A stretch of 64,000 bases of DNA, taken from the NCBI GenBank assembly GCA_012523975.1, contig JAAYSF010000038.1, positions 8,390 through 72,389 on the forward strand, in the 5' to 3' direction. The position numbers and the translations under genes were made by a program. The notes beneath the pieces are model-generated. The model was not told where the DNA came from. It ran no database searches and saw nothing but the letters and a program-made list of their open reading frames with translations. Positions 41,086 through 46,151 of the stretch are shown here, piece after piece (within the stretch, counting starts at the first letter, position 1; each line of letters begins with the position of its first letter). The stretch is from Veillonellaceae bacterium. Lineage in GTDB: Bacteria; Bacillota; Negativicutes; JAAYSF01.

Positions 41086-42180
41086 ATGCAAAAGATGTCT
41101 TTAGCCAACCTTCGGCCGGGAATGGTTGTTGGACGGCATATTTATGGCAGCGATGGTCGCCTGCTACTAAACACTGGAACGGTTTTGACTGAAGCCTTTA
41201 TTAACCGGTTAAAAAAAAATGGCTTAGGCTCAATTTATATAAAAAACAGCTACCTTGATGATATCGAAATACCTGAGATTATCCAAGAAGAGACAAGAAA
41301 AAAAGCAGTCTCGCTTATGCAAAAATCCTTTGATGACCTCAAGTCAACTGCCTCCATCAAGATTGAGCAGTTTGAACAAGCTGCCAAAAGTATCGTTGAT
41401 GAGGTTATAACAAATCGCCAGGCGCTGGTACACCTTACTGATATTAGAACATACGATAACTATACTTTTGGACACTCAGTGAATGTTTGCATTCTTTCAA
41501 CAGTAACCGGGCTGCAGTTAGGCTACAGCAAGTCAAAGCTGCAAACTCTAGCGCTAGGTGCGCTCCTGCATGATGTCGGCAAAGCCTTCGTGCCACTTGA
41601 AATTCTAAATAAGCCTAGCCATCTAACCGATGATGAGATGGCGGTAATGCGCAAACATACCGAAACAGGTTTTAATGTTTTGCGCAAACAAATTGAGCAA
41701 ATTCCGCTCCTTGCCGCCCATGTAGCTTTTCAGCATCACGAGAAGCAAAATGGCAGCGGCTATCCCCGTGGTCTAGACGGCGATCACATTCATGAATTTG
41801 CCAAAATCGTCTCAATCGCAGACGTTTATGACGCTGTAACAGCTGACCGCCCCTACCGCAGCTGCATGCCGGCCCATGATGCCTATGAGCTTGTCGTTGC
41901 CCTGTCGGATATCCATTTTGACCCTGATATTTTGACAACCTTCCTCGGTAATATTGCTCTATATCCGATTGGCAGTTTTATTGCCCTTAATTCCGGTGAA
42001 ATTGGGGTTGTCACCAATGTTATCTCGAAACTTCCCACCCGGCCGATTGTTAAGGTCATAACCGATACTGATTGTAAATTGCTTGCCCAGCCTTACGAGT
42101 TAGATCTCACCGCCGAACTGACGATTGTCGTTGATTCGGTTTTGTCAGAAAAAGATCTCGTAGATTTGAAACTGGTATAA
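41086..42180 (+). CDS. HD-GYP domain c-di-GMP phosphodiesterase with N-terminal uncharacterised domain
   Basis: HDVGKAFVP ... HHEKQNGSGYPRGL (HD plus GYP motifs). Confidence 0.85.
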   Translation: MQKMSLANLRPGMVVGRHIYGSDGRLLLNTGTVLTEAFINRLKKNGLGSIYIKNSYLDDIEIPEIIQEETRKKAVSLMQKSFDDLKSTASIKIEQFEQAAKSIVDEVITNRQALVHLTDIRTYDNYTFGHSVNVCILSTVTGLQLGYSKSKLQTLALGALLHDVGKAFVPLEILNKPSHLTDDEMAVMRKHTETGFNVLRKQIEQIPLLAAHVAFQHHEKQNGSGYPRGLDGDHIHEFAKIVSIADVYDAVTADRPYRSCMPAHDAYELVVALSDIHFDPDILTTFLGNIALYPIGSFIALNSGEIGVVTNVISKLPTRPIVKVITDTDCKLLAQPYELDLTAELTIVVDSVLSEKDLVDLKLV

Positions 42181-42339
42181 AAATATTCCTGCAGTACAGT
42201 AGGCTACAGCACTAGTTATTACCATTCAGAATATTGCAGCTTTACCGCTCGTTAAGCTTGAATTAATTTATCGGCTGTGCTAACATAATATTAGCTTAAT
42301 ATTAAAAGGCAATGATAGGGAAAATACATGAATTAGTCT

Positions 42340-42540
42340 TTCTTCAGAGAGCCGGGTAAGGTGCAAGCCGGCGGGAGGTTATCGTGTAGGCCGCCTTGGA
42401 GCCGCCAGCTGAAAACACGCATTTGCATGTTATAAGCTGAGCCGCAGCCTAGCGTTAATAGGAAGAGTGAGCCGTCGAGGCTAATTTAGGTGGTACCGCG
42501 GGTTTTTGTCCCGTCCTTTTCAAAGGACGGGACTTTTTAT
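42340..42540 (+). promoter_or_regulatory. T-box riboswitch leader (tRNA-sensing antitermination) upstream of the Lrp/AsnC-aminotransferase operon
   Basis: Canonical T-box sequence AATTTAGGTGGTACCGCGG at 42483-42501. It overlaps the 5' arm of the terminator gtcccgtcc-ttttcaaa-ggacgggac-ttttt (42508-42538). AGAGAG stem-I element at 42346. Confidence 0.75.
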
Positions 42541-42567
42541 TTCGATTAATTTAAAGGAGGGTGTTAA

Positions 42568-43047
42568 ATGAAAGAACTACTAGAACTTTTGGAACAAAAT
42601 CATACTTTAACTACAAAACAGCTTGCTGCAATTTTGGGCAAGCCCGAAGAAGAGATAGTCGCCTCCATCAAGCAGCTCGAAGACGACAAAATAATTGTTA
42701 AGTATCAAACTATTATTAACTGGGAAAAAGCAGGTGCCAATATCGTCACTGCCCTCATCGAAGTCCGTATCACGCCGCAGCGTGAAGTAGGCTTTGATGC
42801 CATAGCCGAACGCATTTACAGATTCCCCGAAGTTCGCAGCTTGTATCTAATGTCTGGAACCTACGATTTACAGGTAATAGTCGAAGGCAGCACCCTCAAA
42901 GAGGTGGCTGAATTTGTTTCGACTAAACTGGCGACAATCGAAGGAGTTGTCAGCACTACCTCCAATTTCATGTTGAAGAAGTATAAAGAAGACGGAGTTA
43001 TCATTGAAGATAAAGAAGAAGATCGCAGATTGGTGGTGTCACCATGA
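42568..43047 (+). CDS. Lrp/AsnC-family transcriptional regulator (AlaR-like)
   Basis: 159 aa. HTH_AsnC N-terminus (LTTKQLAAILGKPEEEIVASIKQLEDDKII). RAM/AsnC_trans C-domain. Confidence 0.8.
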   Translation: MKELLELLEQNHTLTTKQLAAILGKPEEEIVASIKQLEDDKIIVKYQTIINWEKAGANIVTALIEVRITPQREVGFDAIAERIYRFPEVRSLYLMSGTYDLQVIVEGSTLKEVAEFVSTKLATIEGVVSTTSNFMLKKYKEDGVIIEDKEEDRRLVVSP

Positions 43048-44210
43048 GCTTCAGTGATAAAATAGCGCCAACAGTAGCAGCAATGCCGACATCGGGCATT
43101 AGACGGTTTTTTGATATCGTTGCCGAAATGAAAGGCGTTGTATCACTGGGAGTAGGCGAACCCGATTTTGTTACCCCTTGGCACATTCGCGAAAGCTGTG
43201 TTTATGGCCTTCAGCGCGGTTATACCGCATATACATCAAACTACGGCCTGCTTGAACTAAGACAGGAAATCGCCAAGCTTTTTAAAAATCAATATAATGT
43301 AAGCTATGATCCGCGGCAAGAAATACTGGTTACAGTCGGCGTCAGTCAGGCTCTTGATTTGGCGATGCGCGCTATTCTTGCTCCGGGGGAAGAAGTACTA
43401 ATTCCCGAGCCTTGTTATGTATCGTATAAAGCTTGTGTCACTTTAGCGGGCGGCACACCAGTACCCGTCCCAACTTATATTGAAAATGAATTCAGAGTCA
43501 CTGTTGAACAGTTGGAAAAGCTCGTCAGTCCTAGAACCAAAGCATTATTAATCGGATATCCTAGTAATCCGACCGGGGCGATCCTAACCCGTACAGAGCT
43601 TGAGGCAATTGCCGACTTTGCTGTCAGACATGATCTTATTGTTATCTCTGACGAAATTTACGGTGATCTCACATATGAGGGGGATCATATATGTTTTTCC
43701 AGCTTGCCGGGAATGCGTGACCGCACTATCCTGCTTAACGGTTTCTCCAAAGCATATGCCATGACCGGCTGGCGAATCGGCTATGCTCTATCAAACCCGG
43801 ATTTTATCGGTGCTATGACCAAGATTCATCAATACACAATGTTATGCGCTCCTGTAACGGCCCAAATTGCCGCTATTGAGGCCCTGCAAAACGGCGAAAG
43901 AAGCATGAAAAAGATGGTAGCCGAATACAATAGCCGCCGCCGCCTGATGCTTGAAGGCTTCCGTGGTATGGGACTGACCTGTTTCGAACCCAAAGGCGCC
44001 TTCTACATCTTCCCCAGTATTAAAAGCACCGGGCTTTCCTCACTTGAGTTCGCCGAACAGTTATTAAAAGACCAAAAAGTAGCTCTTGTCCCTGGCAATG
44101 CCTTTGGCGATTGCGGCGAAGGCTATGTCCGCTGCTCCTATGCCACCTCAACCGCCAACCTCCTCGAAGCCCTCGAACGCATTGAGAAATTTGTAAAGAA
44201 GCATCTATAA
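43044..44210 (+). CDS. Class-I pyridoxal-phosphate aminotransferase (alanine/aspartate aminotransferase, AlaT-like)
   Basis: 388 aa. GIRRFFDIVAEMKGVVSLGVGEPDF ... PLP-Lys context FSKAYAMTGWRIGYA. ATGA overlap with the regulator gene. Confidence 0.8.
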   Translation: MSFSDKIAPTVAAMPTSGIRRFFDIVAEMKGVVSLGVGEPDFVTPWHIRESCVYGLQRGYTAYTSNYGLLELRQEIAKLFKNQYNVSYDPRQEILVTVGVSQALDLAMRAILAPGEEVLIPEPCYVSYKACVTLAGGTPVPVPTYIENEFRVTVEQLEKLVSPRTKALLIGYPSNPTGAILTRTELEAIADFAVRHDLIVISDEIYGDLTYEGDHICFSSLPGMRDRTILLNGFSKAYAMTGWRIGYALSNPDFIGAMTKIHQYTMLCAPVTAQIAAIEALQNGERSMKKMVAEYNSRRRLMLEGFRGMGLTCFEPKGAFYIFPSIKSTGLSSLEFAEQLLKDQKVALVPGNAFGDCGEGYVRCSYATSTANLLEALERIEKFVKKHL

Positions 44211-44474
44211 ACCGCTCAGCCGTGCTTTTTTCTTGATAAAAAAGCACCAAAAAATCAAGGACCTATCCTACAGCGGCTTCCGTAATGTTCCGTAAGAGTA
44301 TGACCGGGGTAACGCTTAAAAGGCCGGTTCGTTTAATCGATCCCCGTACTCCGTATCTTTCGGCCCATTATGGAAAAAACCGTTCCGAGGTTTTTGGAAG
44401 AGGGCCTGGCCTTTTTGGTTACCTTTTTTAGGCAATGCCAAAAAGTAACAACTACCTCATAGGCTAAGTAAATA

Positions 44475-44505
44475 CCTCCATTTAAAAAGGCGCCCATATT
44501 GTGGG
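44475..44505 (-). terminator. Terminator of lctP
   Basis: Stem ggcgccca/tgggcgcc followed on the minus strand by tttttaaa. Confidence 0.55.
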
Positions 44506-44525
44506 CGCCTTCTATGTTTTAACCT

Positions 44526-46151
44526 TTAGGGAATCAAGCCTGGGAATACGAACTGATAGAGGTATACTAACACGCCAAGGAAGAGTGCATACGGGATTGC
44601 AAACTTGATAGTCTTGCGCATGATTACACCTTCCTTACCCATCAGACCAACAGCGGTAGCCGCGATAACGATACTTTGCGGGGAAATCATTTTACCTGCC
44701 GAAGCGCCGGCGTTGCCAGCTGAAGCCATCAGAACATCAGATAAGCCAAGACCTTGAGCAGTCAGTGTTTGCAGGTTGCCGAACAGCGCATTGGCTGAAG
44801 TGTTACTGCCGGTGACAAATACCCCAAGGGCACCAATCGCCGGGCTGAGGAACGGCATGACTTCCTTATCAATTGCCGCTACAAGGCTTTTCGACATTAC
44901 AGCAATCATCGACGGCTGCGCCGCCCCACTAGCAGTTGCCCAAACGACAGCTTTAGATTTAAGATCAATGATCGGCAGAGTCAGGTTCATAACCTCAGAG
45001 ATCGACAGAATACAGGCTACAGTTATGAAGGCTGGCACCATTTGTTTGAAAGTGATACCAATTTGTTTGGTAAAATCGCTGAACCGGATACCCATGAATT
45101 GGAATGCAATCAGACCTGCGATAATTGTAATGGTACCAGGGCTTTGCAGCCAAGTGAAGGCATAAACCTTATTCGGGTTGTAGATTTGCGCCTTAATCAG
45201 CATCCACTCGGTACCGGCAACTTTTCCGGCAAAGATTGGTTTAGTTCCGGGCAGGTTAACTGCGATAACCAGAAGGGCTAACAGGATATATGGAAGCCAG
45301 GATAAGCCCAGCTCTTTAAAATTGAGGGTATGGGCACTGCCGGTTGCAGCAGCACTTTCACCAGGGAAGAGCCAAACTTCAGTTTCTTTACGGGTATAGA
45401 GATAGAAGCCAAGTACGCCTAAGCAAACGAGCGCACCTAAAATACTGGCAAGGGTTGCACCAAGCAGGTTAGCAACCAGGAACTCTACGATTGAAAAGCT
45501 CAAACCGGTAATAAGGATAGCCGGCATAATACCTTTCATGCCTTTAACGCCTGACATTACAAAGACAGTGGCGAAAGTCATGATGAAGGCCATTATCGGC
45601 ATTAAACGACCGGTCATTTGCGACAGTTTCATGAAGTCAAGCTGAGTTGTTAGCGCCAGTGTATCAGTCGGAATAGCCAGTGAACCAAACGGAACCGGTC
45701 CGGTATTGGCCACCAAACATACCAACGCTGCCATCAGCGGATCATAACCAAGGCCTACTAAGATACTGGCCGGAATTGCAACAGGCGATCCGAAACCGCA
45801 AATACCTTCGAGGAAAGCGCTGAATCCGTAGCCTATTAACAGAGCTTGCGCCCGACGGTCAATGGTAATCGAGGACATTGCATTCTGCATCTTGTCCATC
45901 CAGCCGGTAGCTTTAAGAACATTGTAAACAATAATTGCCCCAAAAGGGATATACATTATCGGGAATATACCGGTAATTGCACCTTGCAGCGCTGCTAACA
46001 ACGTTACCTGCGCGGGGAATCCAAAATAAAAAATAGCAATTAAAACTGTTACTAACCATGCAACCGGTGCTACTTTCACCGCTGGTTTCATTAAAACAGG
46101 AAGACCAATCAAAAATACGATTAAGGGTATTGCAGCAAATAAAGCATCCAA
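44526..46151 (-). CDS. lctP: L-lactate permease (LctP family)
   Basis: TTG start 6 nt after GGAGGGG. 541 aa, about 14 TM. LFAAIPLIVFLIGLPVLMK ... typical of LctP. Confidence 0.88.
   Translation of the reverse strand: MDALFAAIPLIVFLIGLPVLMKPAVKVAPVAWLVTVLIAIFYFGFPAQVTLLAALQGAITGIFPIMYIPFGAIIVYNVLKATGWMDKMQNAMSSITIDRRAQALLIGYGFSAFLEGICGFGSPVAIPASILVGLGYDPLMAALVCLVANTGPVPFGSLAIPTDTLALTTQLDFMKLSQMTGRLMPIMAFIMTFATVFVMSGVKGMKGIMPAILITGLSFSIVEFLVANLLGATLASILGALVCLGVLGFYLYTRKETEVWLFPGESAAATGSAHTLNFKELGLSWLPYILLALLVIAVNLPGTKPIFAGKVAGTEWMLIKAQIYNPNKVYAFTWLQSPGTITIIAGLIAFQFMGIRFSDFTKQIGITFKQMVPAFITVACILSISEVMNLTLPIIDLKSKAVVWATASGAAQPSMIAVMSKSLVAAIDKEVMPFLSPAIGALGVFVTGSNTSANALFGNLQTLTAQGLGLSDVLMASAGNAGASAGKMISPQSIVIAATAVGLMGKEGVIMRKTIKFAIPYALFLGVLVYLYQFVFPGLIP

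Follow-up and report, generated by a model that had tools for sequence, protein, structure and literature searches.

What is a tRNA sensor doing in front of a gene for a transcriptional regulator, and which amino acid would it be reporting on? The question is raised by a two-gene operon in a contig of a Veillonellaceae bacterium (JAAYSF010000038.1), from which we have analyzed 64,000 nucleotides (nt), here called the window. An earlier reading made without any database search (the sequence-only reading) had proposed that a T-box leader controls an Lrp/AsnC-family regulator and a class-I aminotransferase at this place. We argue that a classical transcriptional T-box for tRNA-Ala gates an operon of the alaR-alaT type, and we would put the probability of this at roughly 0.88. 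What we have computed in support is the RNA element itself, the signature of its specificity, the two helices that compete within it and the conservation of the operon behind it.

A leader RNA with two competing helices

Is there a T-box at all? The window was scanned as a whole against Rfam 15 (4227 families), and the sole match at the gathering threshold is RF00230, the T-box leader, which is matched over model positions 1-219 at 103.2 bits (gathering score, 93 bits; E = 1.1e-21). Within that match, at 42483-42501, sits AATTTAGGTGGTACCGCGG, which the sequence-only reading had quoted as a T-box sequence. Position 42340, which that reading gave as the start, falls inside Stem I, and the element begins 37 nt earlier, at 42303. 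The cmscan alignment delimits Stem I with its specifier loop, and it also places Stem II, a IIA/B region with CGUUA, and Stem III (Table 1 gives the coordinates of the main features). Some weak Rfam matches over the leader (L10 leader and anti-hemB; E 0.08-0.27) were set aside as noise from the terminator.

The 3' part of this leader can form either of two helices, and they cannot both have nucleotides 42510-42518, which are at once the 3' strand of the antiterminator and the 5' arm of the terminator. That a T-box sequence overlaps a terminator hairpin with a U-tract had been claimed already; the terminator and its U-tract are there, but the overlap lies in this strand and not in the conserved core (42488-42500). 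The terminator hairpin has 11 pairs, seven of them G-C, and a folding energy of -20.3 kcal/mol (z = -6.5), and none of 200 shuffled sequences folded as well; the antiterminator taken alone is worth -8.2 kcal/mol. Because the terminator is by far the more stable of the two, the default state would be “off,” as it is in characterized T-boxes. The terminator hairpin does not take in the ribosome-binding site, which argues that control is exerted at transcription and not by sequestering that site.

Do other genomes keep these helices? Our comparison set consists of 80 loci that encode close relatives of the aminotransferase, all of them labeled Negativicutes or relatives (the homolog search with the window's own enzyme listed Negativicutes only), and the 28 of these that have a T-box were aligned with the window to give 29 leaders (alignment A1). 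Pairing across them reaches 95.8% in the antiterminator and 92.1% in the terminator; with the helix partners slid out of place, it falls to 45-67% and 40-57%, respectively. In 500 shuffles, not one attained the percentage paired or the covariation score of the antiterminator, or any of five measures for the terminator, in which seven of the 11 pairs have changed on both sides. The distal helix of Stem I tells a similar story, compensatory changes keeping all five of its pairs (columns 131-135 with 149-153), and RNAalifold finds both-sided changes in 20 of the 32 pairs that it predicts. (RNAalifold also proposed a helix between columns 121-123 and 301-303; it corresponds to no T-box element and was disregarded.) Judged by this comparison, selection on the competing helices is both purifying and compensatory, and the element is, by its sequence and predicted folds, a full-length transcriptional T-box. 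One point of anatomy weighs against so tidy an identification: the S-turn of the window's specifier loop is off consensus in the cmscan alignment, with AAAAUA / UAG in place of AGUA / GAA.

When 20 of the T-box loci were themselves scanned with Rfam, 12 scored above the gathering score (95-137 bits), and the other eight, at 61-73 bits (E 1e-11 to 1e-14), were still matched at full length. These eight (L007, L008, L009, L011, L012, L014, L016 and L017; e.g., L017:2229-2444) form a group of their own among the Ala T-boxes, set apart by a Stem I that has diverged and lacks the AGUA/GAA consensus of the S-turn. Full length as they are, they would escape standard annotation, since they score below 93 bits.

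Table 1. Features of the leader and operon, in window coordinates
Feature	Position	Strand	Basis
Putative sigma-70-type promoter: TTGAAT (42258-42263), 17-nt spacer, TGc-TAACAT extended -10 (TAACAT 42281-42286)	42258..42286	+	read from sequence
T-box leader (RF00230), full length	42303..42521	+	cmscan
Stem I: K-turn (AAUGAU / GGA), specifier loop, AG bulge (AGAGA, 42346-42350), distal loop (GGUGCAA)	42309..42402	+	cmscan alignment
Specifier codon GCC (Ala), followed by purine G at 42393	42390..42392	+	specifier position in cmscan alignment
Antiterminator with conserved core AGGUGGUACCGCG (42488-42500) and acceptor-pairing UGGU (42491-42494)	42487..42518	+	cmscan alignment
Intrinsic terminator: hairpin (42508-42533) and U-tract TTTTTATTTC (42534-42543)	42508..42543	+	terminator scan
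Ribosome-binding site AAAGGAGG, 7 nt before ATG	42553..42560	+	read from sequence
Lrp/AsnC-family regulator gene, alaR-like, 159 amino acids	42568..43047	+	open reading frame; Pfam PF01037 AsnC_trans_reg (5.8e-16), HTH_24
Class-I pyridoxal phosphate-dependent aminotransferase gene, alaT-like, 388 amino acids	43044..44210	+	open reading frame; Pfam PF00155 (5.6e-76)

An alanine codon and the enzyme behind it

Which tRNA, then, would this leader recognize? The sequence-only reading could not assign the specifier codon by eye; the alignment gives it as GCC, for alanine. The 28 sequences that align at the specifier column have GCC (15) or GCT (13) there and nothing else, and the base that follows is a purine in every one (A in 20, G in eight). 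That is, the third position varies solely between two alanine codons, which is the pattern predicted if selection acts on the meaning of the codon. (The usual specifier of Ala T-boxes is GCU [Wels et al. 2008, PMC2494555]; here it stands in 13 leaders, and GCC in 15.) The tetramer that would pair with the tRNA acceptor end is TGGT in all of the leaders. On this signature, the T-box is specific for tRNA-Ala, with GCC as its specifier.

Could the codon have been read one base out of register, so that the leader would answer to some other tRNA? Specifiers at -1 and +1 do occur (TBDB, PMC7778990), and the shifted codons in the window would be GGC (Gly) at -1 and CCG (Pro) at +1, with AGC (Ser) at -1 in 25 of the 28 leaders. 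Only the canonical register, however, in which the codon and a single purine stand next to the helix, keeps one meaning (GCC or GCU) in 28 of 28; the -1 register wanders among AGC, GGC, TGC and CGC, and the +1 register among CCA, CTG, CTA and CCG. General rules of tRNA identity point the same way: UGGU pairs with an acceptor end that has A73 as its discriminator, as in tRNA-Ala, and suits neither the U73 of bacterial tRNA-Gly nor the G73 of tRNA-Ser. We find a slipped register barely credible, even though the window cannot speak to the matter itself, there being no tRNA gene within it and hence no tRNA-Ala anticodon or discriminator there to compare with the leader. In some related loci, tRNA genes do lie just 3' of the aminotransferase gene, and they are for Pro and Arg, not Ala.

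The two genes that would be gated are what the sequence-only reading had taken them for. The regulator gene starts 34 nt past the terminator hairpin, the start of the aminotransferase gene overlaps its stop as ATGA, and the pair has the expected Pfam domains. An Lrp homolog stands directly 5' of the aminotransferase gene in all 80 related loci. The same composition, an Lrp-family regulator gene and a class-I aminotransferase gene, is found in alaR-alaT (yugG-yugH) of Bacillus subtilis, in which yugG is alaR, of the Lrp family (PMC2885750), and AlaT (YugH) is the major alanine-forming transaminase, a null mutant being an alanine auxotroph (bioRxiv 10.1101/562850). Moreover, specifiers such as this one have served as evidence in assigning amino acid specificity to the genes that a T-box controls (Wels et al. 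2008, PMC2494555), and GCC fits an alanine-forming aminotransferase downstream. From the specifier and the likeness to B. subtilis, we consider the enzyme most likely to be an alanine-forming transaminase.

Several observations pull against that assignment, and they deserve to be set out together. The best NCBIfam match of the aminotransferase is NF005816/PRK07682, which we take to be the model of YugH/AlaT, and at 575 bits, it falls short of the cutoff of 620. Nor does the enzyme reach any alanine-transaminase equivalog (260 bits of 534 for NF006230; 225 of 647 for NF006033). Its nearest solved structures are aromatic and aspartate aminotransferases from the archaeon Pyrococcus, although these are not decisive on substrate, and the names given to its homologs conflict (YugH, patA, aspartate or aromatic aminotransferase): one that is 78% identical is called “putative aminotransferase YugH,” and other sources say patA. 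(A protein from a “Veillonellaceae bacterium” metagenome-assembled genome [MAG] is 100% identical.) As for the regulator, it matches no NCBIfam equivalog at its cutoff.

One might therefore imagine an Ala-specific T-box in front of an enzyme of another kind, either one of broad specificity or an aspartate, aromatic or N-acetyl-LL-diaminopimelate (PatA-like) aminotransferase, with alanine as just one substrate or product among others. Besides the missed cutoff, the structures and the conflicting names, such an enzyme would explain a score of 425 bits with the PatA-type model NF005817. NF005816 nevertheless scores 150 bits higher, the Ala specifier is itself evidence of an accepted type, and the gene pair matches that of B. 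subtilis in composition; we think this alternative decidedly unlikely.

If the enzyme does form alanine, the circuit would work as follows. Transcription would start about 10-15 nt 5' of Stem I, and by default, the nascent leader would fold the terminator, so that RNA polymerase stops before reaching the Lrp gene. Under alanine shortage, uncharged tRNA-Ala would dock on Stem I, its anticodon pairing with GCC (a GGC anticodon would pair exactly), while base pairs form between the UGGU of the T-box bulge and the free ACCA at the 3' end of the tRNA. The weaker antiterminator, thus stabilized, would tie up the 5' arm of the terminator, letting transcription run on through both genes. Charged tRNA-Ala would be unable to stabilize the antiterminator, and the terminator would form. 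The aminotransferase, most likely by making alanine from pyruvate, would then restore charging. We infer the tRNA-binding step from membership in the RNA family, as we also infer the substrate of the enzyme and any role that the Lrp protein may have.

Probable dependence of the operon on its leader

A leader can gate only what is transcribed through it. Where, then, does transcription begin? The putative promoter in Table 1 scores 8 of 12, under the threshold of the scanner; its TTGAAT-17-TGcTAACAT arrangement is identical in the closest relative (L001), and all of the other T-box loci have a recognizable -35/-10 pair about 25-35 nt 5' of Stem I. It is a plausible promoter for the operon. Upstream of it and including its -35 (..TTCAGAATATT..), a block at 42208-42286 is 74% conserved with L001:731-808 and with that locus only, and it may be an Lrp operator or merely a mark of recent common ancestry.

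The sequence-only reading had recognized that a further promoter, placed after the T-box, would make the operon independent of it. Such a promoter, or alternatively a leader that is no more than a decaying relic, would leave the operon largely free of T-box control, and there are promoter-like hexamers within the coding region that might encourage the idea. Our promoter scan, which covered 42000-44600, gave seven sites where 4.5 +/- 2.3 would be expected, all of them inside genes or on the other strand; one of these, at 43036-43063, would start transcription past the ATG of the aminotransferase. Between the terminator and the Lrp ATG (42534-42567), the scan found nothing promoter-like, which leaves the Lrp-aminotransferase operon downstream of the T-box.

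The relic version of this idea draws on the relatives. The T-box core is present in 28 of the 80 loci, at 75-130 nt before the Lrp start (434 nt in L008), and the 52 that do not have it (two of which, L010 and L038, are on contigs too short upstream to judge) count against an essential leader. An Rfam scan of 20 of these core-less loci found a T-box in none. Absence on this scale means that the leader is dispensable, and some loci seem to show us how it is lost. In six of Selenomonas type (L019, L020, L022, L023, L025 and L073), all that remains 60-80 nt before the Lrp start is a hairpin, GTCCTCGTCC...GGACGAGGAC, of -17 to -21 kcal/mol (e.g., at about 2430-2470 in L022). Its sequence matches the T-box terminator of L028, its U-tract is interrupted, and a promoter with a -10 box lies some 25 nt upstream. 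These loci look like T-boxes from which the sensing domain has been deleted, down to the terminator. A patchy leader with terminator-only relics fits the view that T-boxes are gained and lost semi-independently of the genes that they control (Wels et al. 2008, PMC2494555).

Is the window's leader such a relic too? The absences, the relic hairpins and L065, a locus whose leader is deleted across the specifier region, would allow it. The window's own leader, though, has each of its elements intact and exceeds the Rfam gathering score, its helices bear the marks of purifying and compensatory selection, and the promoter scan leaves the second promoter little room. An operon that largely ignores its T-box is, in our view, very unlikely, and we return to the reading in which tRNA-Ala gates both genes.

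Two of the relatives have leaders worth describing for themselves. In L065 (about 2330-2370; A1 columns 165-220), the core and terminator are present, but some 36 nt are gone, so that the specifier loop has no 3' strand and Stem I no base; what we see is a broken T-box, which would then terminate constitutively, or else an error of MAG assembly. In L008 (2160-2520), about 300 extra bases separate the Lrp start from the T-box terminator. Within them lies a perfect inverted repeat of 13 nt (GAGATGCTGAATC / GATTCAGCATCTC), its arms 178 nt apart, which suggests the insertion of a small mobile element.

It had been suggested from the sequence that tRNA sensing is here layered on top of Lrp regulation, and this is plausible. 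One can go further and imagine a circuit with two inputs, in which the charging of tRNA-Ala gates the enzyme together with its own alanine-sensing regulator, the regulator acts at the promoter 5' of the leader, and the RNA input has been lost repeatedly and recently among the Negativicutes. The papers that we consulted give no account of what AlaR does. This fuller picture is a speculation, improbable in its entirety but not far-fetched. If it were true, the Negativicutes would offer a natural series in which to follow the dismantling of a riboswitch whose operon remains under protein control.

Precedents and outlying loci

How new is any of this? The sequence-only reading called the placement of such genes under a T-box less common, which is fair as a matter of frequency, but the arrangement is not new. 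In a RegPrecise study (Sun et al. 2013, PMC3766115, Additional file 2), the Ala T-box regulon includes alaRT, entered as “alaS; alaRT,” for five Clostridium genomes, those of C. cellulolyticum H10, C. novyi NT, C. butyricum 5521, C. beijerinckii NCIMB 8052 and C. tetani E88. Going by that published list, an Ala-specific T-box is there, as here, directly 5' of an operon for a regulator and a transaminase; the Clostridium prediction is purely computational, and the Negativicutes are absent from the nine taxonomic groups of that table. The arrangement is thus already cataloged in Clostridium, and what we add is the Negativicutes lineage and the patchy distribution within it.

Other known systems resemble this one in part. 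The Ala T-box regulon of B. subtilis comprises alaS only (PMC3766115), so its alaR-alaT pair, for all its likeness in composition, goes without a T-box. The leader of alaS, the common Ala T-box of Firmicutes, shares both the RNA family and the amino acid specificity of ours, but it controls a tRNA synthetase, whereas the T-box in the window has a biosynthetic enzyme and a regulator behind it. For a T-box that controls a regulatory protein, there is the precedent of B. subtilis rtpA-ycbK, which is under a Trp T-box (PMC3766115, Additional file 2). The product of rtpA (anti-TRAP) allows tRNA charging to feed a second layer of regulation; it differs in the amino acid and in that it inhibits TRAP, while the protein here is a DNA-binding one of the Lrp family.

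For the annotator, the Ala specifier serves as functional evidence that an inconsistently named aminotransferase is linked to alanine in the Negativicutes, and the cataloged Clostridium regulon is extended to another class of Firmicutes. Beyond annotation, the significance is small, and a specialist would not be surprised.

Farther afield, the seeds obtained from a search of representatives came from scattered lineages, and none reached the NF005816 cutoff. A search seeded with the Thermoanaerobacterium protein led to four loci of Thermoanaerobacterales/Tepidanaerobacter (L081-L084), all without an Lrp gene, and six more distant loci examined in all (L081-L086) have no T-box among them. The remaining two are from gut metagenomes (L085:1989-3679 and L086:2022-3673) and hold AsnC-aminotransferase pairs, with an enzyme 51-53% identical to that of the window, followed by a gene of the GHMP-kinase family; in L085, a gap of 488 nt 5' of the regulator gene contains no recognized RNA family. 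Leaders of other kinds turned up in the same contigs: a c-di-GMP-I aptamer 5' of a CheW gene on a Thermoanaerobacterium contig (L081:4811-4896) and a purine-type aptamer 5' of purS (L083:3845-3914), the latter at 52.6 bits against a gathering score of 60.

Back in the window, a spacer of 315 nt (44211-44525), free of open reading frames, separates the aminotransferase stop from a convergent lactate permease gene. By prediction the spacer is highly structured; it is not conserved in the related loci and has no Rfam match, and the hairpin at 44487-44511 within it is probably the terminator of the lactate permease gene.

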